Shown here one piece after another: positions 32,405 through 56,336 of a stretch of 64,000 nucleotides of DNA (its first letter is position 1; each line of letters begins with the position of its first letter). The stretch comes from an uncultured Ignavibacteriaceae bacterium (GTDB lineage Bacteria; Bacteroidota; Ignavibacteria; UBA10030). The position numbers and the translations under genes are program-made. The notes under the pieces are model-generated. The model had not been told where the DNA came from, searched no databases, and was given only the letters and a program-made list of their open reading frames with translations. The DNA is taken from positions 1,163-65,162 of the forward strand of contig CAYIHQ010000001.1 in NCBI GenBank assembly GCA_964362905.1, given 5' to 3'.

Positions 32405-32668
32405 CTAACGCCGCCTCGGCGGGGGTCTCCGGGGTGTGGAGGTGCTGCGCGAAGCTGACTTGGTACGCATCTCCTGCATGCGCTTGTCATTCTCCGCCTT
32501 CTCCGCTTTCTTCTCCTGGACCAATCGAGCATGATGCCAGTCACGCTCACCAATCGACATGCTTTGGATGCTGGCCCAATCACCGAACTTTCCGTGGTAA
32601 AGGAGATCGAACTCCTTCTCTAGCGCAGTACGTAGTGCTTCAGCCGGTATTTCTTGGTCGAAAAAACT
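32405..32668 (-). CDS. frameshift extension of the tail assembly chaperone (GT-like C-terminal part)
   Basis: The alternative frame is open from 32788 to 32405 and overlaps the last codons of the chaperone. It ends 1 nt before the tape measure ATG. It encodes ...FFDQEIPAEALRTALEKEF... Confidence 0.45.
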   Translation of the reverse strand, partial: SFFDQEIPAEALRTALEKEFDLLYHGKFGDWASIQSMSIGERDWHHARLVQEKKAEKAENDKRMQEMRTKSASRSTSTPRRPPPRRR

Positions 32669-33416
32669 CGTCGCTCGCCGGGAACGCAATCGAACTGACG
32701 TAGCCGCAGCCCTGACAAGTGATCTCCAGCTCCGGATCGAAACCGGGGCTGGCCGCGTCGATCGCATTGGAGAGCGCCATACGATCACGAGTGACCAGGC
32801 TCTCCACCAGCTTCAACGCCGGGATCTCCCTCGCCTCCTCACGACCCTCCGGGGTCGTGATGGCCACGAGATGGCGCGCCAGGAGCAGGCTGTACGAGGA
32901 GTTGCTGGGCTCCCCCACCAACCGCTGGTGCTGCCGAGACACCTGCTTGGCGATCGCACGCTCGTCCTTCCCCCGCAGCAGCCGGCAATCCAAGGTGTAG
33001 CCCCTGACCGGGAGGAGCACCTCGAAGGGCTCACGCCAGTCATCGGCGAGCACCTTCAGCTCCATGTCACGCTCCAGGTCCATCTCGTGACGGAACTGCG
33101 TGCCACACTCAGAGCACTTCACCTGGAAGCCATAGCGATTCCCGATGGACAATGAGCGGAGCTTCAGGAGCAGAAAGAAGCGATCCCCCAGAACCAGATC
33201 ATCCGGAGTGACACCCCCCAAATCGCAGGTACGATGGAGGAGCACATTGGTCTTGTCCTCCGCGGTGGCTCCCTTGTTTGCAAGCATCTTCTCCTCCGCC
33301 ACCGTGATGGCCGAGATGGAGACTCTGCCATCTGGAACCTTTCCCTCATAGGGCAGGCCCCGAGAGGGGAGAGCAATCGGAGTGACCTGGCTACGCTCTT
33401 TCAGCTTCTCGCTCAT
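32640..33416 (-). CDS. tail assembly chaperone (G-like), contains two Cys pairs
   Basis: The track ORF was trimmed to the ATG at 33416 (MSEKLKERSQ...), with an AAGGTGA 5 nt upstream. It lies between the tube and tape measure genes. Cys pairs: CSECG and CQGCG. Confidence 0.55.
   Translation of the reverse strand: MSEKLKERSQVTPIALPSRGLPYEGKVPDGRVSISAITVAEEKMLANKGATAEDKTNVLLHRTCDLGGVTPDDLVLGDRFFLLLKLRSLSIGNRYGFQVKCSECGTQFRHEMDLERDMELKVLADDWREPFEVLLPVRGYTLDCRLLRGKDERAIAKQVSRQHQRLVGEPSNSSYSLLLARHLVAITTPEGREEAREIPALKLVESLVTRDRMALSNAIDAASPGFDPELEITCQGCGYVSSIAFPASDEFFRPRNTG
32658..32666 (-). promoter_or_regulatory. candidate programmed frameshift site TTT-TTT-CGA
   Basis: The zero frame reads GAG TTT TTT CGA. 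The extension frame reads AGT TTT TTC GAC. That is +1 (or -2) relative to the zero frame. The zero frame stops 6 codons later, at 32640. Confidence 0.4.
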
Positions 33417-33485: not shown

Positions 33486-33950
33486 CTAGCGCCTTCTCTG
33501 CTTGAATCGCTTGATCCAGTTGCCCGCCGCAGCAGAGGCCGCTGTTTTCAGCTTCGCTCTGGGGAAGTCGTGCAGACCGAGATGCCGAGTCCGAGCAAAT
33601 CGGTCTGCTCGTAGCACCTTCACCGCGGCCCGTCGATTCCCTAGAGGACGCTTATGGGAACGTGTCTTGGGGTCGCGTGCATTCCAATCGTTTCGGTCTA
33701 CAGACAGGTCTTTACCTGTATGCTTCTGCGCGATCGCCCGCGCACGCCTGGCCTTCCCATAGTGCTTGCCAACCTGCTTCTGATCTACCTCTCGGGCTGG
33801 GTCCGTCCAAGGGCGAGTCCGGTCCATGGCAATTGCGTGCGCGCTCGCCTTGCGTCCGGCCATTCGTTTCTGGTGCGCAAACTGGAGAAGCTTCTTCAGC
33901 CTGAGCTTCCGCTCCTCCGGATCCACAGCCTCTAGCACGAGAAAACGCAT
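33486..33950 (-). CDS. Arg/Lys-rich protein, MRFLVLEAVDPEERKLRLKKL family, copy 1 (154 aa)
   Basis: The start is set to the ATG at 33950 (MRFLVLEAV...), 1 nt after the tail tube stop. The first 25 aa are identical to the 50127-50591 product, and the rest is clearly homologous. Confidence 0.65.
   Translation of the reverse strand: MRFLVLEAVDPEERKLRLKKLLQFAHQKRMAGRKASAHAIAMDRTRPWTDPAREVDQKQVGKHYGKARRARAIAQKHTGKDLSVDRNDWNARDPKTRSHKRPLGNRRAAVKVLRADRFARTRHLGLHDFPRAKLKTAASAAAGNWIKRFKQRRR
33890..33950. repeat. 61-nt segment, 60/61 identical to 50531-50591 (5' ends of two paralogous genes)
   Basis: Direct comparison: gcttcttcagcctgagcttccgctcctccggatccac[a/c]gcctctagcacgagaaaacgcat. Confidence 0.9.
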
Positions 33951-36405: not shown

Positions 36406-37188
36406 CTATCCTTGGTTCGACGTGGTGACCGTGCTACCGCTACCAGTGTAGGTAACGCGGGACAGACGAGGATAAGTAGTCGGGTTGGCATCCACTGTGG
36501 CCGCGGTGAGAGTCGCGGTGTCTACAGCCTGGGGCACGAAGTAGCTGTCCTGGAAGATGGTCAGCACAACCTTCAGCTCCTCCACCTTGGCCAACACCCA
36601 GCCCTTGCCAAGCAGGGACTGCGTGAAGCGGAGCACCCTGTGGCCCTCCATGGGTTCCAAATCCGAAGCGTCCTGCACCCCCTCGTTCTCGAAGGGAACA
36701 CTCACCAATCCCCATGGATCCCAGATGCCTCGCATGTTGACTTTCAAGAACATCTCAAAGGAGCTGAAGGCACCAAGGCAGTACAGCTCATAGGCGTTCA
36801 GGGTCGTTCTGTTCTTGGCCCACAGCTCTACCTGATAACCGATGTTGAAAGGCGCAGGGAAGCGAGCTTGGTAGAGCTTCTTGTTGTCCGCTGTCCGCGC
36901 TAGCCGATCAAACTTCGCTTTGTTTCCGTGAAAGCGCGTCTGGTCATACAGGATACGGCTACGGGAGACACTTGCAAATGGTAGCGGGATGTTCCGGATA
37001 TCATCCACCTTCGTCCCGAGGGTGGGGCGCAGGAGATCCTGCATCGAGGCGAATGCTCTGTCCGGTGTGGCCATCACCACCGGGATGACCGCATTGGAGC
37101 GCATCAGCGGCGCAGACTCTACCCACTCCACGACCGCTTGGTCGTAGGCTCGTAGCTGATCCGCAATGGCATCCGCGTGGTCGGTCAT
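36406..37188 (-). CDS. tail completion / terminator-like structural protein (function tentative)
   Basis: 260 aa, positioned between the neck/adaptor genes and the sheath. Nothing beyond position and general sequence style supports the call. Confidence 0.45.
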   Translation of the reverse strand: MTDHADAIADQLRAYDQAVVEWVESAPLMRSNAVIPVVMATPDRAFASMQDLLRPTLGTKVDDIRNIPLPFASVSRSRILYDQTRFHGNKAKFDRLARTADNKKLYQARFPAPFNIGYQVELWAKNRTTLNAYELYCLGAFSSFEMFLKVNMRGIWDPWGLVSVPFENEGVQDASDLEPMEGHRVLRFTQSLLGKGWVLAKVEELKVVLTIFQDSYFVPQAVDTATLTAATVDANPTTYPRLSRVTYTGSGSTVTTSNQG

Positions 37189-37355
37189 CGAGTTTGGATC
37201 TGCTTGCTCCGATTCCGATTCCCCGTGAGCCGGAGTCGCCGGACCAGCTTACGCTTCTGCGGAGAGTAAGTCGAAGGACGCTGCCCCAGCGCCGGAGTCA
37301 CCCCCAGGCCAATCCCGAGCGTAGTGGTCATCTCCCGCAACACAAGAAACTTCAT
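37185..37355 (-). CDS. small basic protein (56 aa), absent from the ORF track
   Basis: Manual translation gives MKFLVLREMTTTLGIGLGVTPALGQRPSTYSPQKRKLVRRLRLTGNRNRSKQIQTR. It has ATGA overlaps with both neighbours (37352-37355 and 37185-37188). The head and the KRKLVRRLRL segment recall the MRFLVLEAV...RKLRLKKL family. Confidence 0.45.
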   Translation of the reverse strand: MKFLVLREMTTTLGIGLGVTPALGQRPSTYSPQKRKLVRRLRLTGNRNRSKQIQTR

Positions 37356-37819
37356 CGGTCGAAATCGAAGGGCTCGAAGATCCCAAAGAGGTCGGATAGA
37401 GTTGTGGGGAAGAACTGGCTCTCACCCACGAGCTGCATGACGTGCAACACATTCAATAGAACGAAACCAGCACGACGGATCGTCAAGTGCGGATGGTCAA
37501 AGCTCTCGTTCTTGCAGGGAATGTAAGCCGAGACAAAAACACGCCCAGTTTTACTAGGCTCATGGGGAGAGATCACAATGGTACGCCCGTGACCATCCGG
37601 ATGCAGCAGCAGGCTAGCCAATACCTGCTCCGCCCTCTTCAGGGTATCCATGGCTTTATCCCGATCCGGGCATCGCCGAGGATCCGGTAGCTCCATACCA
37701 GCGAGCTGGAAAGTGCTGTGATTGAATAGTCGAAAACCAAGGTCTACGACACCAGAAAAGGTACGTCCATCGCTCACCGACTCAACGTGCATCTTGTAGT
37801 TGTAGATGATGCGATTCAT
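37352..37819 (-). CDS. OB-fold, staphylococcal-nuclease-like protein (catalytic status unclear)
   Basis: VESVSDGRTFSGVVDLGFRLFNHSTFQLAGMELPDPR resembles the SNase-like pattern V.DGDT....dLG....vRL.GIDAPE. Confidence 0.4.
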   Translation of the reverse strand: MNRIIYNYKMHVESVSDGRTFSGVVDLGFRLFNHSTFQLAGMELPDPRRCPDRDKAMDTLKRAEQVLASLLLHPDGHGRTIVISPHEPSKTGRVFVSAYIPCKNESFDHPHLTIRRAGFVLLNVLHVMQLVGESQFFPTTLSDLFGIFEPFDFDR

Positions 37820-39914: not shown

Positions 39915-41390
39915 TTATCCTTGGACGGGCTTCCCAGTGATGGTGATGGGGCTGCTGGGCGTCAGCAGCAAGCTACCTACGATGAGGTACCCGGCACCAA
40001 TGAGAGCGACCTGCTTGGTGGTGGCGAGGGTACCCCGTGTTGTCAACGAGTTAGTCCGCGCGACCGCCAGTGCGGATGCGGTGGGGAGCTGGGTAAGAAC
40101 GTCGAGCAGCGAGTAGATGAAACCCTTCGACACGAGGGGTGCAGTGAGCTGCACCCCCACCACGTAGCCCACCGAGGTGAGAGACTGCTGGGCGATGACC
40201 GCGAGCTGGCCCCGCGAGACCAAGAAGCTGGAGGCTGCGCCCTGCACGTAGGCGGCGCAGACGAGGTAACGGTAGCCCACCGCATCCAGGAGGTGTCCCT
40301 TGGAGGCCAAGAAGAGCACATTCCCACTGATCTGGATATCGCCCTTCGAGGTGAGTAGCTGCTGAAAACCTAGAGTCTGTAGATATCCCTTCGAGGTGAG
40401 TAGCTGCTGAAGATTCGATGTCTGGAACGCGCCCTTGGAAGAGAGCTGTAGCTGCACACCAAGAACTTGCAACGCCCCCTTGGAAGAGAGCGGCACCAGC
40501 ACGCCCAGCACCCCCAGGTAACCCCGGGAAGAGAGCGACAGCGAGGTGCCAGTGGCCAGCGTGCCCCGGGAGACAACCAAGAGCTGTGTGCCCAGCACCT
40601 GGAGATAGCCAACGGAGGCTACCTGCGTGTACGCGGCCCCCCAGGCAATCAGCTCACCCTTTGACAGCAGCAAGAGCTGGGTGCCCAGCACCTGGAGATA
40701 CCCCTTCGAGGTGAGCACGCTCTGCCCTGCCAACACCACATGGCCCTTGCTAGCCAGCAGTGACGACGTGTTGACTACCTGGAGGTACCCGCGTGTAAAC
40801 AGATCGTGCGACTGCGCGACCGCGAGATAGCCCCGTGAAGGAAGAAACAGCAGGATACCGGACGAAGAAAGTAGATCCCCCTTCGAGGTGAGGACCACCT
40901 GGAGATTGACGACTCCAAAGGCACCCTTTGACAGCAGCAAGAGCTGTACGGTGGGAGCCTGAAGGTAGCCGCTGCTTACCAGCGGAAGCTGCGTGTTCGA
41001 GGTGAGGAACGACCCCTTCGACACGAGTGGCAGCTCGGCCGTAGTAGCCAGGGTGCCCTTCGATAGCAGACTGTGGCTGAGGCCGTTGATCGACAGATAG
41101 CCACTACACGAGACCTGCCCTTGCTGAGGGGTGGCCAGCGTGCCCCGGGAAGTGAGGGACAACCCGGGCTCCAGGCTCGGCAACGACAGGGTACCCCGGC
41201 ATATCAAGGGATTCTGGTAGCCGAGGATCACGAGGTAGCCACGGGACGAGGTGGACGCCTGCAACCCCACCGCATTGACGAGATAGCCCGCACCTACCAG
41301 ATTAGGGGCGGTCATCCCGCTAGCCAGTGACCCACGAGATGTCAGCTTGTTGTCCATCACCGTGGTCAGCGTGCCCCGGGATGTAAGAGC
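39915..41390. repeat. tandem 45-nt (15-codon) repeat array encoding the S-K/R-G shaft of the giant protein
   Basis: Near-identical DNA copies occur, for example cccttcgaggtgagtagctgctgaa at 40343 and 40388, and gcccttggaagagag at 40431 and 40476. Protein units include LLTSKGYLQTLGFQQ, LLTSKGDIQISGNVL and QLSSKGAFQTSNLQQ. Confidence 0.8.
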
Positions 41391-44300
41391 CAGCTCCTCC
41401 GTTTCGCTGAGCGCTTCCTCAGCCTGGAGCACGGGTGTAACCGGGGTGGCCACCTTGTAGGTCGCTGGCCGATCCACGCGCGACAGCCTCACCTCTGCCA
41501 GCTTGATGTTGGCAAATGAGGTGAAGAATGTGCTAGGTGTGTAGAATGCTCCGTGGACGAAGCTGGTAACCTGGGATACAACTGCCAGGCTGCCGGAGAC
41601 GGCTTGGCCTGTACCCGCCACACCCCCTACATAGGGGGTAAGCGTGGTGCTAGAGTAGTCGAGCTTGATGTGTACCCAACGATCCGTGGGGTACTGCGTT
41701 GTGGAGGTGGTATGCGTGCTGATGATTTGCACGCCACCTGCTGGTGGTGAGGAGAAGGTGACAGACCAGGCACCCGTGAGATAGTCCAGGGTTCCAGAGG
41801 TGATCCCCGTGCCACTGATCGTACCCGCACCGTAGTCATAGCCTGCTACGGAGCTGCCAGCCACATAGATGTAGAAGCTGCTGGCTATAACAGGGGCTAC
41901 CAAAGTCCCAGAGAATACAGTCTGAGAGCCGTTGCCCGTAGCGAGCACAGTGCGCGTCCCCTGAGGGATAGCCACCTCGACTACGGAATATGAAGTCCCC
42001 TGACCCACAGTGAACCGACCGCGCAGAGCACGATCCGTTGACGCAGTGTTGAGGTAGACGAGAATAGGAGCCACCGTGTCATCCGCTAGAGACAGCAGAG
42101 ACCACAGCTCAGAGACTCCAGAGTCTCGATCGAGCGTCCGGATGAGCACCCAGAAATCCAAGCAGAAGCTACCCTGCCACGCATAGACAGAGAAGTTGGC
42201 CGAAACGAACGACGCTTGGAACAGAGATTTCTGGAAGTGCGAAGCCCCGCCGAAAATCCCCTTGATGTGGCTTGGGGAGAATCCAGCAATCGTAGCCAGT
42301 GCCTGAGAGTTGGGACCGGCATCGTTTCCGATCGAGCCCTCGCTGTTCCACAGCGCTACCGTGTTGGCATCAGAGGCGTAGGGGCCGTCAATCGAGTCCG
42401 TATTGGACCACGCTGTGGACGAGGCAGCTCCGGGATTGCTGTAGTACACATAGTACGCCTGAGTGACAGACAATCCAACATCTTCATTTTGCTGGATCGT
42501 CTGCGTCGGAACGAAGTATAGAAAATAGTCTCCAGAAGCTGGATCACGCCGGAGAGTGCTGGGCACCAGCGTGAACAGGTTGGTGTCCGTCTGGTGGACT
42601 ACGCGCAGATCCCCCAGACCGAGCTGGCTAAACGTGGGGATCCCATAGGTCGTCACGTTCACACCCAGGACATCCCTGCCCCCGGTGTACAGGGAGTGGG
42701 TGCCCGAGGTGGACACTCGGCGACGCCGACGCCAAGTGGTGTCCCACCAGCCAGTGACCTGCCCCAGCCCACCATCCGCGTGTGGGAAGTCCCCTGTGAT
42801 GGGACCAAGGAACTGCTCCTCATACTCGAACTTGCTACCCTTCGTATTGGCGTTCACACCGCTGAACCGGCCATTTACGTGGCTAAACGCCATCAGGTTG
42901 TAAAGCCAGTTATTCAGCAGCTTTATAGCAAGTGCCCTTTTTTGAGTATTCGTGTGGTAGCGTGCAGCGTAATACGCCACGAGCGATAGAGCAGCGTTTA
43001 TTCCGTCTGGTAGTCCATCGGGATAATTACCAACTCCTTCGTGATAGAAAGTTTCGGCATCTGTTGGCGCCCTCTGGCACGGGTACCTCGGGGGCTGTCC
43101 TGGAGGGTTCGTGCAGCTCGGTACGGTGAGAACCGGAGGGACAGTCCCTGGATGGGGGATGCCACCATCGAAAGTGGTGATGTCCTGACCATGTGCTCGA
43201 AAGGTGCCAGCGACGGGCCACCCAATGGTATCGACGTGTGGGCTGGGAGAGTCCTTCAAGCCCGGAGTTTGCTTGCTGGTAACCCAGTCCTGAACAGCCG
43301 TATCTGAGCCTAGCCGATTGTAGTAGGTAGCTATCGGCGTATCGCTATCCGTCAATGCCGGGTAGTACGGCGGTGTGGTAGACAGATAGGGTGACGATAT
43401 CGGGATTACCCAAGAATAGCCCTGACCATAGTTATCGTTACAGAAGCGAACGGGGAACCCGTGGCTACCACCCCTTAGTGGATCCTGGAACAGAAGGCCA
43501 AACCGACCGAGAGTCTGTGAGACGAATCCCGGGGATAGTCGGCCTGGATACGGACCAAGCCCGTAGAGTAAGCAGTAGTCAAGCACGTAGCTGCTGCCCC
43601 CCAACCCAAGACGCAGGAGGGTGGCAGGCAATGTGAGACCGTTGGAAAGCAGCTTGGTCTCGTAGCGAAACTCTCGATAGCACGCCCAGATGTAGGGCAG
43701 GATGTAGCCGAGCTGCCAGGTAGAGCTGTAGGTGAAATACCCCTCACCAAAACGCATCTGCACCTCGGAGATGGGAAGCGAGGGATTACCCAGCGCGGTG
43801 CCACCCCCATACAGTGGATTGGTGCTCCCAACATTCTCCGGATTGCCCCAATCCAGACCCCTTCCTTCATCTATCGGAAAGTCCTTGATCTTCTCTTTCC
43901 CGGAGACCGCGATCAGCCCCGCAGGGTCCATCAAGCCGAGGGGTGAGGTGGACAAACGCCAGACATTTCGACTCTCGATGAACTCCTTATAGCGATCCGG
44001 CGCGCTCCCGTAGGCAGCAGAGGTCAGGAACTCGAATCCGCTGCGCCCAGCCAACGCCTTGGTCACGAGATAGGCCGTCAGAACGTTCTTCAACGACCAG
44101 GCATTAGCCCGAGATTCGTCGCGGAATTGCTGCTGGTTGGTGCCCGTCGGATCAAAGGGGCTCTTATCCTTGTAAGCCCCCAGAAAGAACTCGCCCATGA
44201 GACGAACCTTGTCCCACAGAAGCCAGCTCCCTGTGGTCTCCCACACCTCAAAGGCAGCATCCTGGCTACAGTGAGAAGCGTTCTCCGCGGACATCCCATG

Positions 44301-47225
44301 CTGTAGATTCTCCTCAAGGAACGCAATGCGAGTCAGCGCATAGCTTCTTGTATCGTTCTTCGGGAGCACGGAGACCCCGGGCTCTGGATCGTTGCAGATC
44401 GCATACGACACCTCGGAGCCCGGGGCTGTGGTGGTACCCTGATAGGGACTGCTCAGAGTACCTTTCCAGAAACCGGCCGCAAAGTCGTACCACGTAGCCG
44501 TCAGGATGTAGGTTCGATCGTGCCCGTCCACCACAAGACGCCGATAGCCCGCGTACACGGTAGAACCCGCATAGGTCGAGAACCCGTTAGCATTCTGAGA
44601 GTAGTAGGCTATGTCATTCGCGGAGAGAGACGATCCCGCGCTATTGGTAAACGTTACCGTAGTGCTGTTGTTGGTGACTCCGATTTTGTCACGTCCGAAG
44701 CAGCGTCTGAACGTACGATTCAGTGGCTCCTGGTTGGTGATGAAATACTGTCCCCCCGTCGTTGAGAACGGCACGAGTCCGTTATCTCCGGGTGCCGTCT
44801 GATACTTATAGAAAGGACGACGGCTCCAGGTGTGCGCGTTCTCGAAGTTCCACAGCACCTGACCTACTCGCGTATACCCGTGGAGCCCCGCATGATAGAA
44901 ATAGCGTACGGCTTGCCATGCCTGGCTGTAGTAGATCAACAAGCAATGAGCGTGTCCGTTTCTCGGGGCTCCCGCTGTGTTGGCCGTGGGTACACCCTGC
45001 TCATGCCATCCATGGCAGGCGCGGCTACCCACAGACGTGGTGGTGGTGCCGCCCCCTTGGAAATTGCCACTACTCCAGGCAGTGACCGCGGAGATCGCAG
45101 TTGCCTGATTCAGAGTGTGGATCGTCCCCTTGTCTCTGGCAATCGCCTCCGTCGTGTAGCTCCGCGTGTAGACATTACCGGGCGCTACGAGCTGTGTGGG
45201 GGTCAGGAACTTCAGTGCCCCCTCGAAGAGCCCCAGAGCCCGGGTAGCATTGTAGGTCTCCCGCTTGGCAATCGGAGTGATCGGATGCAGCTTGCGCGCA
45301 GCAAAGGTGTCATTCTCTGCCGCTGAGGCCCCCGCCCCAAAGTAAAGAAAAAAGATTCTTGGGACGCTCGATCCGTCCGTCAGGTGCTCCTGCACGTAGT
45401 CCGACTGGAAGCCCCCTGCCGGGATCGCCCCGCCGATCGTGTCCCTCGGACATCCGCAGATCGTGTAGCCACGCTTATCTCCCCCGAAGACAAACGTACT
45501 CGCCCGATAGCCCGAAATCGCCTCCATGTGAGAATCCGTCACATGGTCGGTATCGAAAACCAGTCCCCACCGATTGAACGGCATTGGACCCAGCGGGTGG
45601 TAGTTCGGATTCTGTGAGAACGACGTAGCTAGATCATTCTTGATGTAGGACGCCTGGATTTTCGTGCCATTCGTAGGTGCGGTGCGGAACGTGAGATCCA
45701 CGGCACCCGTGGTGTAATTCACTGTCCCATCGAGAATCAGTGTGGCCCCGGTTACATCATACGAGTAGGTTCCCAGCACCTGTATCCCAGAGCCGGGCGC
45801 GGTGGAGAAGGTGATGGAGTAGGCACCCGTGGTGTAATTGATTGTGCCCGCCGAGATCCCAACACCAGAGATCGTCCCCAAGCCGTTGTCGCGCCCGAAG
45901 ACCGTAGTACCCGTTCCCACCTTCACGAGGAGCGCACCCTTGATGAGCGGCTTACCCACCGCGGTCCCGGTGAACACCGTCTGCGAGGCTGTGCCCGTGC
46001 CCCACAGCTCATTGACTACATTCGTGTGGTAGAAGGGCACCACCTGGCCAAGGCCATTGTCCTTGCCCTCCACCGTACCCGCCTGTACGTGCAGAGAGTG
46101 AGCATTAGGACGGCTCGGAAGAATCGCCCCGGTAAACGAGGTACCTCCAGCACCTACGTAGAGCTGCCAATAGGCATAGCGATAGGAGGACAGCACGGGA
46201 ACCAGATTCAGTGGGGCTACAGCAAACTCCACCGAGATGGCACCAGTGGCGTAGTTCACATAGCTGTTCGCCCCCTTCACAATCCCTGGCCCTGTGATCT
46301 CCCCGACACCACCACTCAGGGTCTGTCCGTCCTGCCCGGAGACACTGGCTCCCGCAGAGACCCGCAGATACCCCTTGGGAAACGCACCATGGCCCGCGAA
46401 AGCATATGGTAGCGTCCCGGTGAAGATCCGAGTGACACCATTCCCTGTCCCCAGAGAATAGCTAGCATTGGTGTGCAGCTCCGCGTCCCTTCCCTGATAA
46501 TCATTCCCCAGACGCACCTCCAGATCCACACAACGAGAGTTGTGCGGAATATACAGGTACCACGTCAGCGAGAAGAGATCACGATTGAGCGAGGTTGCAG
46601 ATGTCTGGATGTCCCTATGATAGCTGCGCCTCCGGATGACCTTCATCCACTTCGTGTTCTCCAGAGTAGTATCCTCGTACCACTCTGTAGAGTTCGTGGC
46701 GTCCACCCGATAGAGATTTCCGGAGCGCGAGAGCGCAGCATCTACATAGACATCAAAGACTTCGCTCTGGAACGTACCGGAGATAAGCCCCGAGGTTACA
46801 GAGGCATGCTGCGCATAGGTTGGCAGGTTGTTCTTGAGAGTGATGCTCTTGATGAGCTTCAGGTACTGAACACCCCGCACGTTGGTCGCCGCATTGCGCT
46901 TCGGGATGTCTACCCCTGTACCATCCGTTTTCCCACACCATCCCTTGGCAACACGCACCTGACCATTCGGCCACGTCGTCAGCAGCGTCCACGCCGTAGG
47001 CAAGTCCACATCGGCGGGTACCGTCGCCGACTGAAGCAGACGAAAATGGTAGTCCGCTAGCTCGCTCTCGTAGATCCCATTGTTCCCCGAAGGAAACGGA
47101 CATGTCACACCCACGACCTCCTTCCGGTCGTAGTCCGTGTCATTCTCCAAGATGAACTGGAGATCCAGAGCCTCTGGCCCCCCGGCATCACCCATGCCAC
47201 CCGGTCCCGGGGGAACGACAGCCAT
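39915..47225 (-). CDS. giant multidomain fibre-like virion protein (2436 aa)
   Basis: A single uninterrupted ORF. Its parts are an N-terminal globular region, at least 4 copies of a GT..FTGT...DNG.G.I.G..I..GTINY.TGA.S.TF module (aa ~257-527, and again at ~1800-1870), a possible LamG/concanavalin-like segment, and about 30 C-terminal 15-residue S-K/R-G repeats. Confidence 0.85.
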   Translation of the reverse strand: MAVVPPGPGGMGDAGGPEALDLQFILENDTDYDRKEVVGVTCPFPSGNNGIYESELADYHFRLLQSATVPADVDLPTAWTLLTTWPNGQVRVAKGWCGKTDGTGVDIPKRNAATNVRGVQYLKLIKSITLKNNLPTYAQHASVTSGLISGTFQSEVFDVYVDAALSRSGNLYRVDATNSTEWYEDTTLENTKWMKVIRRRSYHRDIQTSATSLNRDLFSLTWYLYIPHNSRCVDLEVRLGNDYQGRDAELHTNASYSLGTGNGVTRIFTGTLPYAFAGHGAFPKGYLRVSAGASVSGQDGQTLSGGVGEITGPGIVKGANSYVNYATGAISVEFAVAPLNLVPVLSSYRYAYWQLYVGAGGTSFTGAILPSRPNAHSLHVQAGTVEGKDNGLGQVVPFYHTNVVNELWGTGTASQTVFTGTAVGKPLIKGALLVKVGTGTTVFGRDNGLGTISGVGISAGTINYTTGAYSITFSTAPGSGIQVLGTYSYDVTGATLILDGTVNYTTGAVDLTFRTAPTNGTKIQASYIKNDLATSFSQNPNYHPLGPMPFNRWGLVFDTDHVTDSHMEAISGYRASTFVFGGDKRGYTICGCPRDTIGGAIPAGGFQSDYVQEHLTDGSSVPRIFFLYFGAGASAAENDTFAARKLHPITPIAKRETYNATRALGLFEGALKFLTPTQLVAPGNVYTRSYTTEAIARDKGTIHTLNQATAISAVTAWSSGNFQGGGTTTTSVGSRACHGWHEQGVPTANTAGAPRNGHAHCLLIYYSQAWQAVRYFYHAGLHGYTRVGQVLWNFENAHTWSRRPFYKYQTAPGDNGLVPFSTTGGQYFITNQEPLNRTFRRCFGRDKIGVTNNSTTVTFTNSAGSSLSANDIAYYSQNANGFSTYAGSTVYAGYRRLVVDGHDRTYILTATWYDFAAGFWKGTLSSPYQGTTTAPGSEVSYAICNDPEPGVSVLPKNDTRSYALTRIAFLEENLQHGMSAENASHCSQDAAFEVWETTGSWLLWDKVRLMGEFFLGAYKDKSPFDPTGTNQQQFRDESRANAWSLKNVLTAYLVTKALAGRSGFEFLTSAAYGSAPDRYKEFIESRNVWRLSTSPLGLMDPAGLIAVSGKEKIKDFPIDEGRGLDWGNPENVGSTNPLYGGGTALGNPSLPISEVQMRFGEGYFTYSSTWQLGYILPYIWACYREFRYETKLLSNGLTLPATLLRLGLGGSSYVLDYCLLYGLGPYPGRLSPGFVSQTLGRFGLLFQDPLRGGSHGFPVRFCNDNYGQGYSWVIPISSPYLSTTPPYYPALTDSDTPIATYYNRLGSDTAVQDWVTSKQTPGLKDSPSPHVDTIGWPVAGTFRAHGQDITTFDGGIPHPGTVPPVLTVPSCTNPPGQPPRYPCQRAPTDAETFYHEGVGNYPDGLPDGINAALSLVAYYAARYHTNTQKRALAIKLLNNWLYNLMAFSHVNGRFSGVNANTKGSKFEYEEQFLGPITGDFPHADGGLGQVTGWWDTTWRRRRRVSTSGTHSLYTGGRDVLGVNVTTYGIPTFSQLGLGDLRVVHQTDTNLFTLVPSTLRRDPASGDYFLYFVPTQTIQQNEDVGLSVTQAYYVYYSNPGAASSTAWSNTDSIDGPYASDANTVALWNSEGSIGNDAGPNSQALATIAGFSPSHIKGIFGGASHFQKSLFQASFVSANFSVYAWQGSFCLDFWVLIRTLDRDSGVSELWSLLSLADDTVAPILVYLNTASTDRALRGRFTVGQGTSYSVVEVAIPQGTRTVLATGNGSQTVFSGTLVAPVIASSFYIYVAGSSVAGYDYGAGTISGTGITSGTLDYLTGAWSVTFSSPPAGGVQIISTHTTSTTQYPTDRWVHIKLDYSSTTLTPYVGGVAGTGQAVSGSLAVVSQVTSFVHGAFYTPSTFFTSFANIKLAEVRLSRVDRPATYKVATPVTPVLQAEEALSETEELALTSRGTLTTVMDNKLTSRGSLASGMTAPNLVGAGYLVNAVGLQASTSSRGYLVILGYQNPLICRGTLSLPSLEPGLSLTSRGTLATPQQGQVSCSGYLSINGLSHSLLSKGTLATTAELPLVSKGSFLTSNTQLPLVSSGYLQAPTVQLLLLSKGAFGVVNLQVVLTSKGDLLSSSGILLFLPSRGYLAVAQSHDLFTRGYLQVVNTSSLLASKGHVVLAGQSVLTSKGYLQVLGTQLLLLSKGELIAWGAAYTQVASVGYLQVLGTQLLVVSRGTLATGTSLSLSSRGYLGVLGVLVPLSSKGALQVLGVQLQLSSKGAFQTSNLQQLLTSKGYLQTLGFQQLLTSKGDIQISGNVLFLASKGHLLDAVGYRYLVCAAYVQGAASSFLVSRGQLAVIAQQSLTSVGYVVGVQLTAPLVSKGFIYSLLDVLTQLPTASALAVARTNSLTTRGTLATTKQVALIGAGYLIVGSLLLTPSSPITITGKPVQG

Positions 47226-48280: not shown

Positions 48281-48772
48281 CTAGTGTTTTTGAAATGTGC
48301 CACGAATCGCGCGCAGAATCTCCATCTTTGTCATCGTGGACTGCGCGAGAGACGCACCAAAGAGCTTGGCCAGGGCTTGCAAATCTTCCAGCTTCAAGGA
48401 GGCCAACACGCCCAAGTCAGGCTCCGTCTGAAAGTAGACGCGCCAGACTGCGAGATCCTTGTCCTTGTAGACCACAAGTGCCGGAGGTACCACAGTAGCC
48501 GGATTCGGCTCCGAAGTCGCCGTGGGCTTCGCACTTTTGGAGCCACCTCCCAGCCGAAGCGGGTCATGCACCTTCGCCGGGGCCTGCCCCGGCCCCGTAA
48601 CGATGGTCAGCAGACCCGCACGGCATGCGCGTGCGAAGTGTACACCACGGATACCCTCACCAGACGCTAGCCGATAGCTACCCCCTGAAGGCAGGCTCAA
48701 GCAGACCATACTCCCCGTCGCATTGACGTAGATCGGCTCCAAGCCCACCTCATTCTTGAGCAGGGTGCTCAC
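48281..48772 (-). CDS. protein with a C-terminal Rho_N/SAP (HeH)-like domain
   Basis: LKLEDLQALAKLFGASLAQSTMTKMEILRAI fits the Rho N-terminal/HeH motif (l.v.eLr.lAk.lgi.g.s.m.K.eLi.aI). Confidence 0.5.
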   Translation of the reverse strand: MSTLLKNEVGLEPIYVNATGSMVCLSLPSGGSYRLASGEGIRGVHFARACRAGLLTIVTGPGQAPAKVHDPLRLGGGSKSAKPTATSEPNPATVVPPALVVYKDKDLAVWRVYFQTEPDLGVLASLKLEDLQALAKLFGASLAQSTMTKMEILRAIRGTFQKH

Positions 48773-49911
48773 GCGCCCTCCAGATGATGCTTTGCCAACA
48801 GCTCCTTCAGCTTGGCATCGAACTTCCGCAAGCGCGGGGGCTTGCCCGTACGAGCCTTCGGAACCTGGCGTGCCAGTATGCTCGCCGCGCGGATAGCCTT
48901 GTACTTCGCGCGGGCCGCACCCGCGTCACCCGGGCTACCGCTTCCGATCCCTGTAGTAGACATGTGCTGCTGATAGACCTTGGCATTGGCCTTCAGACTC
49001 TTCAGCACATTCAAAATCCGATGCAGATGGCTCACCTTCGACGATGCGCCTTCCTGGAAGAACGCTTGAAGACGTGCCCGCCGCTGCTCCTCTCTGCCTT
49101 GATCTGTGAAGTCCGCCACCTGAGCCTCCTGCTGAAGAAGTGGTCCAGTTCTCTTGAACGAATGCAGCCCCATCCGATGCGCTACACGCTGCACCATCCG
49201 TAGGCCGTGCTGCAAAGATACCCGATGGGCCGCCGGATGGAAACCCTCATCTCCAGGTTCCGCGAACTTCCCCGTGATCGCCCGGTGAACCGCATCGTGC
49301 ATCACGGTGTTCAGCTCCTTGTGGAAAACTCGGTCAGAGACGTGGATCCCGAGATGCTTGGCACTCAGCTCCCGCTGCTTGTGCGCCGCTAGCCACTCCC
49401 AGTGTACCGCCCGAGTGGCCTCTCGGGGGGAGCGCACGCCCAGCTTGCCCAGCCTACGACCTTCCCCGTACATCTGGTTGAGCCGTGCGCGGGTCAACGC
49501 GTGCGCCAGCTCATGGGTTTTTCGCCACGCCTCGGTGTAGTGCTGGTTCTTGAAGTCCCCTCCCGAGCCACTACTGGGATCCCAGATCATCAGGTGCTCG
49601 GTGTCGTAGTTCTTGCGCGCGAGATCGGGCTTCCCGTGGCTACCCCCAGCATAGTAGTGCTGGTAGCCATGATGCGCCAGCATCCGGTCGATCGCCGGCA
49701 GATGGCGCTCGGTATAAGGGTAGTGCTTTAGGTTGGGGTGACCCCCCGGATGCACCCGACCCCAGCCGGAAGCAATCTGTCGGTAGGCTGCGGAGGAGCC
49801 CACCACAGCCACCTGAGCATTCTCCCGGAATTGGGATCGGAATTGGAAGCGCCTGTAGTGCTCCGTGTGGCCATCGTGCCAAGCATACGCATGGGGATGT
49901 GAGTGGGCCAC
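48769..49911 (-). CDS. His-rich protein with an HExxH (zincin-like) motif
   Basis: 380 aa with a GTG start. WRKTHELAHALT contains HELAH. The sequence has an unusual density of His, and the C-terminal third is basic and helical. Confidence 0.5.
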   Translation of the reverse strand: MAHSHPHAYAWHDGHTEHYRRFQFRSQFRENAQVAVVGSSAAYRQIASGWGRVHPGGHPNLKHYPYTERHLPAIDRMLAHHGYQHYYAGGSHGKPDLARKNYDTEHLMIWDPSSGSGGDFKNQHYTEAWRKTHELAHALTRARLNQMYGEGRRLGKLGVRSPREATRAVHWEWLAAHKQRELSAKHLGIHVSDRVFHKELNTVMHDAVHRAITGKFAEPGDEGFHPAAHRVSLQHGLRMVQRVAHRMGLHSFKRTGPLLQQEAQVADFTDQGREEQRRARLQAFFQEGASSKVSHLHRILNVLKSLKANAKVYQQHMSTTGIGSGSPGDAGAARAKYKAIRAASILARQVPKARTGKPPRLRKFDAKLKELLAKHHLEGA

Positions 49912-49926
49912 GGATAAGACGGGGAA

Positions 49927-50130
49927 CTAGCCCCTGCCCAGATGACGACGCTTCCGCTTGTAAGCGCTTAGATAGCGCTGCAACTTGTCATCAGCACTAC
50001 GCGCATCCGCATGGGTGCGTGCCCAAGCACGCCGTTTCTTCAGCGCCCAGACGCGGCGCAGAACACTAGCCAAACGCTTCCGCCGCAACGCGATGTCAAG
50101 AAACGCCTCGGAAAGCGCATAGACCTTCAT
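49927..50130 (-). CDS. small highly basic protein (67 aa)
   Basis: Its start makes an ATGA overlap with the upstream stop (50127-50130). The sequence is Arg/Lys-rich (RRKRLASVLRR, KKRRAWAR, YKRKRRHLGRG). Confidence 0.45.
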   Translation of the reverse strand: MKVYALSEAFLDIALRRKRLASVLRRVWALKKRRAWARTHADARSADDKLQRYLSAYKRKRRHLGRG

Positions 50131-50591
50131 GTCACCGCCTTGCCCTCACGCTGCTTGAAGCGAGCAAGCCATCGGTTGGTTGCACCAGAGATTTTTCTCT
50201 GTGACGCCCCCGTGCCGTGAAGACCCAGGACTCGCTTATAGCGATCTCGGCGTAGCACCTTTACAGCGTCTCGGCGATTGCTGATAGGCCGAGGACGAGC
50301 ACGGCGTCCTCCCCTGGTCCAATCCAGAGAAGTCGCATGGTAATCCCTACCTGTATGCTTCTGCACGATCGCGCGAGCACGCTGACCACGGGTCCAATGC
50401 GCGTAGGCTGCGTGAGTCGCATGATCCGCGGGTTGATCCCCACGGAGACCCCCCGTTTCCTTATCCAGAGCGTGGGCGTGCTCCCTCCCAGTACGCCCGG
50501 CCTTTCGTTGCCTCGCAGCAAATTGAAGGAGCTTCTTCAGCCTGAGCTTCCGCTCCTCCGGATCCACCGCCTCTAGCACGAGAAAACGCAT
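50127..50591 (-). CDS. Arg/Lys-rich protein, MRFLVLEAVDPEERKLRLKKL family, copy 2 (154 aa)
   Basis: It starts 4 nt after the stop of the upstream beta-sandwich gene. About one quarter of residues are Arg or Lys. It shares motifs with copy 1 (RARAI.QKHTG.D, NRR.AVKVLR.DR). Confidence 0.65.
   Translation of the reverse strand: MRFLVLEAVDPEERKLRLKKLLQFAARQRKAGRTGREHAHALDKETGGLRGDQPADHATHAAYAHWTRGQRARAIVQKHTGRDYHATSLDWTRGGRRARPRPISNRRDAVKVLRRDRYKRVLGLHGTGASQRKISGATNRWLARFKQREGKAVT
50531..50591. repeat. 61-nt segment, 60/61 identical to 33890-33950
   Basis: Direct comparison. See 33890-33950. Confidence 0.9.
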
Positions 50592-50595
50592 CGCA

Positions 50596-50958
50596 TCATC
50601 CTATGGGATTGTGGCAGACCTTGATGGTGCAGGAGCCAGGTGACGCCACGCTCCCCGAGGCCTTCACCTTGAGTCGCGCACGGGTTTCTCCAGAGAAGAG
50701 CGAGATGGTGATGACCCGGTACTTGCCAGTTCCGGTGAGGCTAGTAACTTGAGAAACATCGTTACCGCTAGCATCCCGTGTTGGATACCAATCCGTGTTG
50801 TTGTCCGATCCCTCAATACTAAGCTGGATCGTATCCTCGGAGCCCTTCGTGTAGTTGACAAGCAAGACCATCGTACCCGTGGCAGCACGAAACGAGGCTC
50901 CAGCCACATAGCTCGTGGAGAAGCTACCTACGGAGGACCAAGCTGTTGTGACCGCCAT
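50596..50958 (-). CDS. small beta-sandwich (discoidin/CBM-like?) protein, paralogue A (120 aa)
   Basis: Trimmed to the ATG at 50958 (MAVTTAWSS...). MVLLVNYTKGSEDTIQLSIEGSDNNTDWYP and RARLKVKASGS are shared with paralogues B, C and D. Confidence 0.6.
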   Translation of the reverse strand: MAVTTAWSSVGSFSTSYVAGASFRAATGTMVLLVNYTKGSEDTIQLSIEGSDNNTDWYPTRDASGNDVSQVTSLTGTGKYRVITISLFSGETRARLKVKASGSVASPGSCTIKVCHNPIG

Positions 50959-50959
50959 C

Positions 50960-51349
50960 TCAGAATACGGAGGGGTGAGGATTATGCAGCAGCTTGACCG
51001 TGACCGTCCCATTGCCTCCCGGTGTCCCCGCGATTCGGCTTGTCAACCGGACGTACTGCTCCCCCGAGGCCAGAGCGATGTTGGTGTTGAGGCGCCCGGC
51101 ACCACCAGCGGAAGCACTGTAAACCTGAGAGATGTCTGCACCACCCGAGCTGGTGGGCAGATACCAGGATACACCGTCATCCGAGATCTCCAAGCGGAGC
51201 TGTAGGCTCGTCTCCGTGCCCGTACCTTTGACGTAGCTGATGAGCAACACTACCGTCGAAGGCGACACCCTGACAACAGCGGAGGGGCTACCAAACCCGG
51301 TCGTCAAACTCGCTGTCGCCAGCGCATTGTAGAGAATAGTCGCACTCAC
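50960..51349 (-). CDS. small beta-sandwich protein, paralogue B (129 aa)
   Basis: VVLLISYVKGTGTETSLQLRLEISDDGVSWYLP and YVRLTSRIAGT. Confidence 0.6.
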   Translation of the reverse strand: MSATILYNALATASLTTGFGSPSAVVRVSPSTVVLLISYVKGTGTETSLQLRLEISDDGVSWYLPTSSGGADISQVYSASAGGAGRLNTNIALASGEQYVRLTSRIAGTPGGNGTVTVKLLHNPHPSVF

Positions 51350-51355
51350 GGAAGA

Positions 51356-51751
51356 TCAGGTGCTGTTCTCAGACTTCGGGAACTTTTTCACCAGGCGACC
51401 CGCCAGCTTCAGATAGCGCGCAGTGCGATGCGCAACGTGTGGATGCTGCCTTCCCACGCGCTGAGCAATCAGTTGCATATCCTGAGCATCAACTGGAGCG
51501 TTGTGAGCAGAGTAATGTACATCCGTAGCTGGCGTATGCCGAAGCTGCGGATAGCTCATCTTCGCACCCCAACCCACGTTCTTCCAGAAGAGGTTCCCTG
51601 TCTTCTTGTTGCGGCGGAGTGCCGCAACTGCCTTTTTGACGGCATCCTGCCACACCCAGCTCCCCTTTTGGGTGGAGACTACATTGGTAAGCCCCGTCCC
51701 CTTCCGGATCTGCTTGTACCCAGTGGCTTCGGGGATCACACAGAACAGCAT
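51356..51751 (-). CDS. basic hypothetical protein (131 aa)
   Basis: First ORF after the hairpin that follows the capsid gene. The sequence is Lys/Arg/His-rich. Confidence 0.5.
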   Translation of the reverse strand: MLFCVIPEATGYKQIRKGTGLTNVVSTQKGSWVWQDAVKKAVAALRRNKKTGNLFWKNVGWGAKMSYPQLRHTPATDVHYSAHNAPVDAQDMQLIAQRVGRQHPHVAHRTARYLKLAGRLVKKFPKSENST

Positions 51752-51833: not shown

Positions 51834-53231
51834 TCACGGATTCAGCAGAACGCCCCGGCAGTAGAAGTTCGCATTGACCGGCTTCTTCCCGTACTGCGTT
51901 CCGATCCCCTTCCGGCCGATGAAATCGTCCAGGATGATGGTCGGCGTCATGTACAACGGGATGTAGGGCGCGTAGACGTAGCCCGTGTCGAGGAAGCTGT
52001 TGCCCTTGTAGCCCATCACCCATGTGGTCGTGGCAAGGAACGGATCCTTGTAGACCGTCCAGCGGTTGTTCAGCGTCCCGATCTTCAGGACACCGCTGTT
52101 GGCCTGCGTGCCCAACGCACCCGGGATCGGCACAAACGTGGGCAGGGACTCGATCACGTCGCAGACGGCGATGCCGGCCACAATGAAGTTGGTCTGCACA
52201 CGCTTGGTCTTGCTCATCACCAAGTTGCTGCCCGAGATCATCGCATCCACGATGGACAGCTTGTGCTCCGTGTAGCTCACACCCGCCGGAACCGCCTTGT
52301 CCCAGGTCACTGAGCCCGCACCAGCAAAGGAGTCCAGATCGTTGATGATCTCGCGGTCCAGCTCCTGCTTGATGACCTCGGCCATGATCCCCACCATCTC
52401 GGCCTCCGCGTCCAGACCATGCAGCGCGTTGAGGTTCTGCGCCGCTTCCAGACTCCAGCGAGCACGCAGCTTGCGGACCAACGCCTGGATGGGCGCGCTT
52501 GTGAGCTGGAGATCAAGCTGCGGAACGTTGTCGGATGCCTCCGAGTCGTACCGATAGGTGACCGTGGCGGCCGTGATGTTGTTGACGAAATCGAGGGAGA
52601 TCACCCCCGTCGCGTAGTTGATGGTGGCGACACTGAGGGTCTCCGTGCCAACGGTCAGCACGAACCCGCCATTGCCATCATCCGTCACCGTGAAGGCCCC
52701 ACCCGCGCTGGTCCCCGAGATGGTCACCGTGCCGGGACGCACAGGGATGTAGGCGCAGGTGTGCGCGACGTTGTTGGAGCTGATCGTGCCAGTCTCCTTG
52801 TTGACCGCATCACCGCTGTAGGTCTCATTCCCGGTCCCACCCGTGCGGGCATCAAAGGCCGCACCGCCCGAAGCGATGGTACCCTTTGTGGTCCCGTAGA
52901 GGTAGTCCAGATAGAAGATCAGCGAGATCGGACCAGCCATGGGCTGGACCGAGACGATCTCGTTGGCGATCAGATTCGGGTAGACCGCCCGAATCAGCGG
53001 AAAAGCGAACTTGTCCCAATTGCCCACCTGGAGCACCTTGGTGACCTCGTTCATCTCGCTGGTCTGAAAGCGATGCTGATTCTCCAGCAGGATGGCAGTG
53101 TGCTTGCGCGGCCAGCCAGAGAGATCATCACAGTAGGGTGCCCAACGCGGGCTGGAGGCAAGGGCCTCGCCAATCGTCTCCATCTGGTCCACGCCGGACC
53201 CACGGAGATTCGGAAGCATTACGGAAGACAT
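51834..53231 (-). CDS. major capsid protein, T4 gp23 family, with an inserted repeat-type domain
   Basis: FPLIRAVYPNLIANEIVSVQPMAGPISLIFYLDYLYG, VRKLRARWSLEAAQNLNALHGLDAEAEMV..EVIKQELDREIINDL and PTIILDDFIGRKGIGTQYGKKPVNANFY match gp23 hallmarks. Confidence 0.9.
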   Translation of the reverse strand: MSSVMLPNLRGSGVDQMETIGEALASSPRWAPYCDDLSGWPRKHTAILLENQHRFQTSEMNEVTKVLQVGNWDKFAFPLIRAVYPNLIANEIVSVQPMAGPISLIFYLDYLYGTTKGTIASGGAAFDARTGGTGNETYSGDAVNKETGTISSNNVAHTCAYIPVRPGTVTISGTSAGGAFTVTDDGNGGFVLTVGTETLSVATINYATGVISLDFVNNITAATVTYRYDSEASDNVPQLDLQLTSAPIQALVRKLRARWSLEAAQNLNALHGLDAEAEMVGIMAEVIKQELDREIINDLDSFAGAGSVTWDKAVPAGVSYTEHKLSIVDAMISGSNLVMSKTKRVQTNFIVAGIAVCDVIESLPTFVPIPGALGTQANSGVLKIGTLNNRWTVYKDPFLATTTWVMGYKGNSFLDTGYVYAPYIPLYMTPTIILDDFIGRKGIGTQYGKKPVNANFYCRGVLLNP

Positions 53232-55928: not shown

Positions 55929-56336
55929 CTACACCGTGTTGCCAGAAATGGGCTGCGTCGCGCTGCCCAGAGAGCACTGCACTTTCACCAGAGTCGTGGC
56001 ATCGCTCGATCCAGTGGACTTGGCTGAAACCCGCAGCTTCGACTCAAAGCGCCCCGTGGTCACTGCCCAGCGAGACTTGGTGGTGGCAGTCTTGGACCAC
56101 ACCACCGTGCCCGTCTCCAAGTAGGGGACAACCCGCCAGGTCGCACCATCCCAGCTCTCTACCTGGATCTGCGCGCTGGTCTCCGCCCCCTTGGTGTAGT
56201 CCAAGTAGAAGACGACCGTACGAGCCCCGTGGGTGTCAAGGGATACCTGGTTGCCCGTGTACGCGGTTGTCAAGGCCGTGCCCACCACGTTCAGCAGCGT
56301 GGTGAACCCGCCTACGCCATGGAGCGTGGTCGGCAT
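55929..56336 (-). CDS. small beta-sandwich protein, paralogue D (135 aa)
   Basis: TVVFYLDYTKGAETSAQIQVESWDGATWRVVP and KLRVSAKSTGS. Confidence 0.6.
   Translation of the reverse strand: MPTTLHGVGGFTTLLNVVGTALTTAYTGNQVSLDTHGARTVVFYLDYTKGAETSAQIQVESWDGATWRVVPYLETGTVVWSKTATTKSRWAVTTGRFESKLRVSAKSTGSSDATTLVKVQCSLGSATQPISGNTV

Follow-up and report, generated by a model that had tools for sequence, protein, structure and literature searches.

In phage T4, the internal proteins (IPs) and Alt carry at the N-terminus a capsid targeting sequence (CTS) of 10-20 residues, which binds the prohead core and is then removed (PMC9026906). The T4 protease gp21 cuts after Glu in the motif L/I-x-Glu, a specificity first recognised as cleavage of a Glu-Ala bond (PMC9026906), and the internal proteins themselves are diverse, with only the targeting sequence conserved (PMC3012670). 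Phages with gp21-like proteases have families of head-protein paralogues with 2 to 20 members, and gp53 and gp54 of phage SPN3US are processed head proteins with identical N-termini on otherwise diverged paralogues (PMC5694885). Here, we describe a family of Arg/Lys-rich proteins encoded at three loci (A, B and C) in a 64,000-nt stretch of metagenomic DNA (the window; positions 1,163 to 65,162 of contig CAYIHQ010000001.1, assembly GCA_964362905.1, listed under an uncultured Ignavibacteriaceae bacterium). On balance, these proteins are probably analogues of the T4 internal proteins, which would be targeted by a short leader to the prohead core, cut by an S77-type protease at a Glu-Ala bond, retained with the DNA and ejected with it. 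The protein family and its leader sequence are new, while the logic is that of the T4 internal proteins.

The sequence-only reading of the window had placed the three loci on the minus strand and had estimated that about one residue in four is Arg or Lys. Both the coordinates (Table 1) and the composition were borne out, with Arg+Lys (R+K) contents of 27.9% in A, 24.7% in B and 24.7% in C, isoelectric points (pI) of 11.2-11.7 and net charges of +24 to +51. The two motifs that it had proposed as common to the proteins are also real: A, B and C share the head EAVDP(E/Q)xR(K/W)(L/V)RLxK and a later segment HxxRxxRAxxIxxK, and over the five units the residues D10, P11, R14, R17, L18, K20, H63, R69, A70 and K76 are invariant. 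These columns are also conserved in distant metagenomic homologues. Locus C indeed consists of three tandem units, of which units 1 and 2 are duplicated over 285 nt, and unit 3 retains the 51-nt head block common to the other two. A and B are 49% identical overall, and residues 1-25 are the same in both. At the DNA level, approximately 73 nt from the ATG are nearly identical between A and B, and the genes are diverged elsewhere except for a second block of 35 nt (91% identical), which encodes RARAIxQKHTG. Among degenerate codons of identical residues, only 1 of 19 in the first 20 codons differs synonymously, compared with 23 of 49 in the remainder, and gene conversion between the paralogues is suggested by this difference as the likeliest cause of the conserved 5' DNA. 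RNA structure was rejected as a cause, with z-scores of -0.1 to -0.8.

The proteins of the family begin with a leader of the form M(K/R)(F/V)x-hydrophobic-hydrophobic, followed by 0-5 residues and then by hydrophobic-x-Glu↓Ala, where the arrow marks the proposed cut. The same leader heads proteins that are not detected by the hidden Markov model (HMM) of the family, namely those of 67, 131, 342 and 624 aa in the window and its flank. Seven genes of the window and flank carry it by one pattern (A, B, C and the open reading frames (ORFs) of 67, 56 and 131 aa, together with the 342-aa gene on contig L005) and the 624-aa gene carries it by another. Among related phage contigs, it is found on about 15 genes in L010, including array members that lack VDPEERKLRL, on four genes in L017 and on three in L022. 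The L017 carriers include three paralogues of 784-924 aa, which are non-basic, begin MKV(K/T)LLE↓A or MRVRINE↓A and gave no matches in Pfam or PDB-sequence searches. A scan of seven loci for coding-strand ORF starts fitting [MVL][KR][FVI]x[LIVFA][LIVA] returned 38 starts, 28 of which have Glu-[Ala/Ser/Thr] within 5 residues (Ala in 26 of the 28), compared with none of six such starts on the opposite strand. Position P3 of the 28 leaders is always hydrophobic (Phe in 15, Leu in 9, Val in 3 and Cys in 1). The flavour of the leader differs by phage, with MRFLVLE in the window, MKFI(I/V)IxNFSE in L010 and L016, and MKVxLLE in L017 and L022, as expected if the leader sequence co-evolves with a phage-specific receptor. 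Since it heads unrelated proteins and ends in hydrophobic-x-Glu↓Ala, the leader resembles the CTS of T4 in its logic.

The genomic setting is that of a T4-like phage. The window is part of a contig of approximately 129 kb from Hainich groundwater metagenomes, with sister contigs that are 99.4-100% identical. Its head module encodes a major capsid protein of the T4 gp23 family (PF07068) and a prohead protease of the T4 gp21 type (Peptidase_S77, PF03420, E 1.4e-20 over residues 30-175), with PHROG matches to phrog_207 and phrog_138. Fused to the S77 domain is a long tail, acidic (pI 5.2) and scaffold-like, in which hydrophobic-x-Glu↓Ala sites are numerous, and candidate maturation sites in the capsid protein lie after residue 22 (ETIGE↓A) and after residue 50 (AILLE↓N). 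Sites of the forms IIGE↓A, ILE↓A, AIE↓A and ETIGE↓A, spread over the protease tail and the capsid N-terminus, count in favour of leader cleavage by this protease, as judged from their sequence. Further T4-like genes encode a gp19-type tail tube, a tail sheath (Phage_sheath_1, PF04984/PF17482), a gp13-type neck protein, and the baseplate components gp25, gp5-like and a gp26-like hub.

When 1.84 billion representative sequences were searched exhaustively with the family profile, 30 proteins were obtained at E ≤ 1e-3, seven of them at E ≤ 1e-10, and the similarity within the family is far beyond chance. Three of the 30 are A, B and C themselves and the other 27 come from metagenome assemblies. 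The matches have a hydrophobic start, the head EAVDPEERKLRLxK(L/I/V)xx(Y/F)A and the later segment HxxRxxRAxxI(V/I)(Q/K)K(H/Y/F)TG, and single-, two- and multi-unit proteins are all present. The earlier statement that the family is unrecognised was upheld by every database consulted. A, B and C had no match in Pfam (zero families at E ≤ 1) or PHROG, and the same holds for the small ORFs. A PDB-sequence profile search gave nothing significant (best E 0.38, a silk-moth DNA-binding repeat), tblastn against 50,697 phage records (INPHARED, including T4) found no match, and no relative was confirmed in IMG/VR and 185,579 species genomes. Histone-like proteins (HU/IHF, H-NS and similar) were not matched by A, B or C in Pfam, and the best PDB fold had an E value of 0.9. 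A word-indexed search with A alone returned just A and B.

The long contigs examined that carry family members are T4-like phage contigs. On L010 (114.7 kb), a tandem array of approximately 15 small genes encodes proteins with 25-32% R+K and pI values of 10.8-11.9, all beginning MKFI(I/V)(I/V)xNFSE↓A or a close variant and about nine continuing VDPEERKLRL. The array is syntenic with locus B, as it lies just upstream of homologues of the 176-aa and 165-aa genes of the window, a giant ORF and gp13. Four further phage contigs with members are L016 (52.8 kb), L017 (89 kb), L022 (173.8 kb) and L012 (30.4 kb, with a T4-type portal). Two members, P0030 and P0041 (the latter on L017), carry a small C-terminal GNAT-like acetyltransferase domain, for which the Pfam matches are weak but consistent, P0030 barely attaining the Acetyltransf_1 cut-off. 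Two features of these contigs concern gene calling: on L016, the gene caller left a gap that contains a family member of 100 aa, identical to P0035, and a GTG start on L017 gives a leader-bearing extension of a called 269-aa gene.

An AlphaFold2 (AF2) model of A was built with an alignment of 19 sequences (mean predicted local distance difference test score, pLDDT, 78.8). In this model, the stretch of residues 1-10 is unstructured, a helical hairpin with pLDDT >90 spans residues 11-78, and two more helices follow. From the secondary-structure output, the two conserved motifs would lie at the sequence-distal ends of the hairpin helices (residues 11-20 and approximately 69-79). When two AF2 models were compared with PDB and BFVD by Foldseek, nothing matched at E ≤ 0.001.

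Taken as analogues of the T4 internal proteins, A, B and C would be translated late, together with the adjoining virion genes, and the leader would dock each protein on the prohead core before the shell closes. The gp21-type S77 protease would then cut after Glu, in A and B at E7↓A8, leaving mature proteins that begin AVDPEERKLRL. Among A, B and C, the cut forms would begin AVDPEER or AVDPQSR, as opposed to an intact MRFLVLEAVDPEER. The mature helical-hairpin proteins would remain in the head, where they may neutralise and organise the packaged DNA, and would exit with it at infection, when the host may be the target of some paralogues or enzyme fusions. The predicted disorder of residues 1-10 ahead of a confidently modelled hairpin can be counted in favour of a removable leader, and the GNAT-like fusions and large leader-bearing proteins recall, by analogy, the packaged enzyme Alt of T4. 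The sequence-only reading had suggested packaged DNA-condensing, internal or ejected proteins, and this suggestion is strengthened by the gp21-type protease, the gp23-type capsid protein and the leader on unrelated proteins.

Several points weigh against it. Targeting, cleavage, DNA binding and ejection are all inferred, and the proteins have no sequence or fold similarity to the T4 IPs or to the inner-body proteins of phiKZ and SPN3US in Pfam, PHROG, PDB or BFVD. The strongest conservation (AVDPEERKLRLxK) lies past the proposed cut, whereas in T4 the propeptide is the conserved part; AVDPEERKLRL is more likely to be where helix 1 begins than to be a signal for targeting. In most internal units, either P3 is Lys or Arg (KIE↓A, KAE↓A, KQE↓A) or the Glu is missing, and since they do not fit L/I-x-Glu, cleavage of C into three proteins is doubtful. 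The final Glu of some leaders is followed by Val, Ile or Met, and at P3 Phe or Val frequently takes the place of Leu or Ile. Moreover, the T4 IP genes are not within tail operons, unlike locus A. The S77 protease is confirmed only in the window phage and its near-identical variants, the relatives being recognised by gp13, a T4-type portal or synteny.

The extreme basicity and the helical hairpin would also fit generic nucleic-acid binding, and the proteins could act during infection rather than in the virion, as RNA chaperones, translational or transcriptional regulators or disruptors of the host nucleoid, with the hydrophobic N-terminus serving folding or oligomerisation. Conservation is highest within the mature part, and C and its relatives are found near a gene for mCpol (minimal CRISPR polymerase) and genes of unknown function, away from the head genes, as would suit such a role. 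We nevertheless regard it as unlikely, because it leaves unexplained both the same Glu↓Ala leader on unrelated proteins, including the large non-basic ones of L017, and the phage-specific flavour of that leader. In addition, the AF2 model places the leader outside the fold, and late structural operons surround A and B, with no promoter or terminator signal above shuffled controls. A role closer to that of the internal proteins, with the identical leader and protease logic, would be that of core or assembly factors of the prohead, comparable to T4 gp67 and gp68, which are also small and gp21-processed (PMC9026906, PMC5694885); such factors would help to form the scaffold core or set its size, undergo cleavage and for the most part be expelled ahead of packaging. 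A net charge of +24 to +51, however, suits DNA contact over scaffold building, a copy number that ranges from 1 to approximately 15 among related phages fits accessory cargo rather than an essential core part, and each single-unit protein has one evident cleavage site, which together make this role quite improbable.

The scattering of copies between conserved genes, together with the low synonymous divergence of the first 20 codons of A and B, might instead be read as the mark of selfish or mobile ORFs (free-standing homing endonucleases or morons), with the 5' DNA block as a recombination handle. This is highly improbable, as no nuclease (GIY-YIG, HNH, LAGLIDADG), integrase or transposase motif or domain was found, nor any Pfam, PHROG or PDB-sequence match, and an all-helical fold is predicted; no repeats flank the genes outside the ORFs, distant homologues retain the protein motifs while their DNA differs, and the tandem arrays and in-frame multi-unit proteins are unlike homing genes. 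Locus A, finally, is flanked by the tube gene and by the genes that run up to the tape measure, a position at which a tail assembly chaperone or a tail-lumen protein could be encoded. We give this least credence of all: paralogues B and C occupy head-proximal and unrelated contexts, the relatives L010, L016, L017, L022 and L012 have members elsewhere, no chaperone family is matched in Pfam or PHROG, a gp26-like hub gene intervenes between A and the tape measure, and no frameshift architecture is evident in A, for which no specific test was made.

All three genes are tightly coupled to their upstream neighbours, in agreement with the sequence-only reading: A starts 1 nt past the TGA of the tail tube gene, B starts 4 nt past an upstream stop codon, and the start of C overlaps the upstream gene via ATGA. 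That the virion genes to which the family is coupled are highly expressed was an assumption of that reading. The gene upstream of A encodes the gp19-type tail tube protein (PF06841; phrog_4542, E 8e-24), and the genes run from the tube through A, the gp26-like hub and an unannotated ORF to the tape measure. The gene upstream of B had been labelled decoration-like; it has no family match, and the label could not be verified. Since promoter-like and terminator-like signals around the loci do not exceed shuffled expectation, co-transcription with the neighbouring genes is the simplest reading. The family is not confined to structural operons. Locus C is part of a distinct group of basic-protein genes downstream of an mCpol gene, and one member in a relative is preceded by ribonucleotide reductase and by a gene of 385 aa (only a weak match, to a purple-acid-phosphatase N-domain). 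The cluster continues upstream of C, just outside the window, with more basic proteins, one of which (284 aa) contains an internal unit ...SKAE↓AVDPEERKLRLRKLL... (HMM E 1.9e-8). The mCpol genes upstream of such clusters (PF18182) have a Pfam match in L014, L016 and L017.

Table 1. Positions of the family members, of other leader-bearing genes and of further features. Coordinates are those of the window unless a contig is named; ↓, proposed cut.
Feature	Coordinates	Strand	Remarks
Family member A	33486-33950	minus	154 aa, ATG at 33950; leader MRFLVLE↓A, then VDPEERKLRLKKL head
Family member B	50127-50591	minus	154 aa; leader MRFLVLE↓A
Family member C	62744-63754	minus	336 aa, three units; leader MMCSVLE↓A
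C unit 1	63467-63754	minus	MMCSVLE↓AVDPQSRWVRLRKLL...; ATG overlaps stop of upstream gene (ATGA)
C unit 2	63110-63466	minus	...KGKIE↓AVDPQARWVRLRKL...; 285-nt tandem duplicate of unit 1
C unit 3	62744-63109 including stop codon (unit itself 62747-63109)	minus	...SRRVKDPEERKLRLRKI...; without Glu-Ala dipeptide
Major capsid protein	51834-53231	minus	T4 gp23 family
Prohead protease	53259-54845	minus	T4 gp21 type
67-aa basic ORF	49927-50130	minus	31% R+K; leader MKVYALSE↓A; ATGA overlap with B
56-aa basic ORF	37185-37355	minus	leader MKFLVLRE↓M; ATGA overlaps at both ends
131-aa ORF	51356-51751	minus	directly after major capsid gene; leader MLFCVIPE↓A
269-aa gene, 3' end	63751-64000 (whole gene L005 9195-10004)	minus	translationally coupled to C
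342-aa protein	L005 2968-3996		flank; leader MKFCLIPRFTE↓A
624-aa protein	L005 3993-5867		flank, just outside window; leader MRFFLAPCFSE↓A
mCpol gene	L014 8000-8515		
mCpol gene	L016 8538-9023		
mCpol gene	L017 1-623		
mCpol gene	L022 1433-2773		assigned from N-terminal motif only
GNAT-like fusion P0041	L017 10001-10666		
100-aa family member	L016 9698-10000		identical to P0035
GTG start of extended 269-aa gene	L017 9096		
127-aa ORF	32405-32788	minus	ends exactly at tape-measure start (32404)
155-aa protein	37352-37819	minus	just upstream of 56-aa ORF
2436-aa ORF	39915-47225	minus	45-nt (15-aa) repeats around 40331-40912
165-aa gene	roughly 47.2-47.7 kb		offset from L003
176-aa gene	roughly 47.7-48.3 kb		offset from L003
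347-380-aa basic protein	48769-49911	minus	downstream of B
129-152-aa protein	50596-51012	minus	
129-152-aa protein	50960-51349	minus	
129-152-aa protein	55929-56336	minus	
152-aa gene	~55.5-56.0 kb (L003 4615-5073)		
Intein-containing gene	L012 4676-8419		
Intein-containing gene	L010 12495 onward		

The 56-aa ORF had been put forward as a possible mini-member of the family. It looks like a real gene, because ATGA overlaps join it to its neighbours on both sides, and its kinship to the family was not supported: one HMM gave no match at E ≤ 10, the other gave E 2.7 over the leader alone, and only the leader MKFLVL is shared. The 67-aa ORF was rejected as a member (profile E 8.4), and the 131-aa ORF, in which many Arg, Lys and His residues can be seen by eye, has no family kinship apart from its leader. 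The protein of 269 aa whose gene is coupled to C shares 40% identity with the C-terminal 270 aa of the 624-aa protein, the N-terminal 340 aa of which are paralogous to the 342-aa leader protein. The conserved motifs (F/W)RGMSH(D/E)E … SFS … (D/E)xx(E/D)VP might point to an enzyme, possibly ADP-ribosyltransferase-like in the manner of Alt. None of the three has a Pfam match, the 624-aa protein has no PDB-sequence match, and a homologue search with the 269-aa protein returned a near-identical variant only.

Several other genes of the window and of the related contigs were recorded alongside. The gp26-like hub gene is overlapped at its 3' end, out of frame, by the unannotated 127-aa ORF near locus A, where gene callers leave a 235-nt gap; this ORF is protein-like and could represent a gene missed in annotation or an extension by frameshift ahead of the tape measure. 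The 155-aa protein has a weak 'endonuclease' PHROG match (phrog_452, E 2e-4). Four proteins of 129-152 aa, apparently paralogous by eye, flank the capsid and protease genes, and one pair of their genes overlaps by approximately 50 nt. The basic protein of 347-380 aa downstream of B contains a HELAH (HExxH-like) motif and ends in KLKELLAKH, resembling KLKDLLQKN within C, and has no significant family match. Giant ORFs corresponding in position to the 2436-aa ORF follow genes of the 165/171-aa type in L010 (1806 aa, directly before gp13) and in L017 (>1709 aa). Inteins occur in conserved genes of related phages, one in ribonucleotide reductase (Intein_splicing and LAGLIDADG) and another in a gp13-like gene (Intein_splicing and a weak HNH_3 match).

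A broader view, which we offer as a tentative possibility, is that a clade of uncultivated T4-like phages (approximately 90-175 kb, from groundwater and other metagenomes) addresses proteins by means of a portable tag, a hitherto undescribed leader of the form MKF-hydrophobic… hydrophobic-x-Glu↓Ala. This tag would load a large and fast-diversifying cargo, comprising protamine-like helical-hairpin proteins with up to approximately 15 paralogues in tandem, in-frame multi-unit proteins, GNAT-like and other enzyme fusions and proteins of 800-900 aa, so that the head would contain both a 'phage chromatin' rich in protein and an arsenal of injected effectors far beyond that of T4. If true, this would be an independent, sequence-unrelated instance of the T4 CTS principle from environmental phages, and scanning genomes for the leader could list the packaged and injected proteome of phages that have not been cultivated. 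Internal-protein repertoires could then grow past a dozen paralogues and include multi-unit proteins, and their size bears on the packing of densely charged DNA and on the delivery of anti-defence effectors. A leader of 7-12 residues that loads arbitrary cargo would also be a useful tag, as the T4 CTS is for protein delivery. If, on the other hand, the proteins are not internal proteins, the family is still well defined and fairly widespread, an orphan for which a helical hairpin is confidently predicted and in which two motifs are invariant.

Compared with the giant phages, the likeness lies in the processing and in the arrangement of paralogues: phiKZ gp93, gp95 and gp162 as well as SPN3US gp53, gp54 and their paralogue family B are cut after Glu by a diverged gp21 homologue (PMC5694885, PMC9026906), and A and B, like SPN3US gp53 and gp54, have identical N-termini followed by diverged sequence. 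The giant-phage proteins differ in that their propeptides are mostly longer than 100 residues, the cleavage motif is A/S/G-x-Glu, and the proteins are approximately 31 kDa and match pfam12699, whereas no Pfam match is found here. The genomes described here are also T4-like and of approximately 90-175 kb, in contrast to the phiKZ-like giants. Outside the phages, adenovirus protein VII is a small, very Arg/Lys-rich protein whose precursor, pVII, is clipped by the virion protease; it is alike in basicity and in a plausible neutralisation of the charge of packaged DNA, and unrelated in lineage and sequence. The internal proteins of T4 are more weakly basic, with 14-19% R+K and a pI of approximately 9 compared with 25-31% and 11-12 here. 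The present family, known from genes alone, further differs from them by its in-frame multi-unit proteins, its tandem arrays of approximately 15 genes and the copy inside a tail operon. A search of the literature on 'hyperplastic' IP loci of T4 yielded nothing usable, and the tandem-array and multi-unit architectures appear new, with no counterpart found among the T4 internal proteins. What the T4 IPs and Alt share with this family is a genome with gp21-type protease and gp23-type capsid genes, basic cargo, a leader common to diverged or unrelated proteins, and a number and identity of cargo proteins that vary between related phages. The start itself follows the same grammar, that is, M-K/R, a few residues and hydrophobic-x-Glu↓Ala: in the T4 genome, MKTYQEFIAE↓A is the start of both IPII and IPIII, and that of IPI is MKTFKEF…ITE↓A.

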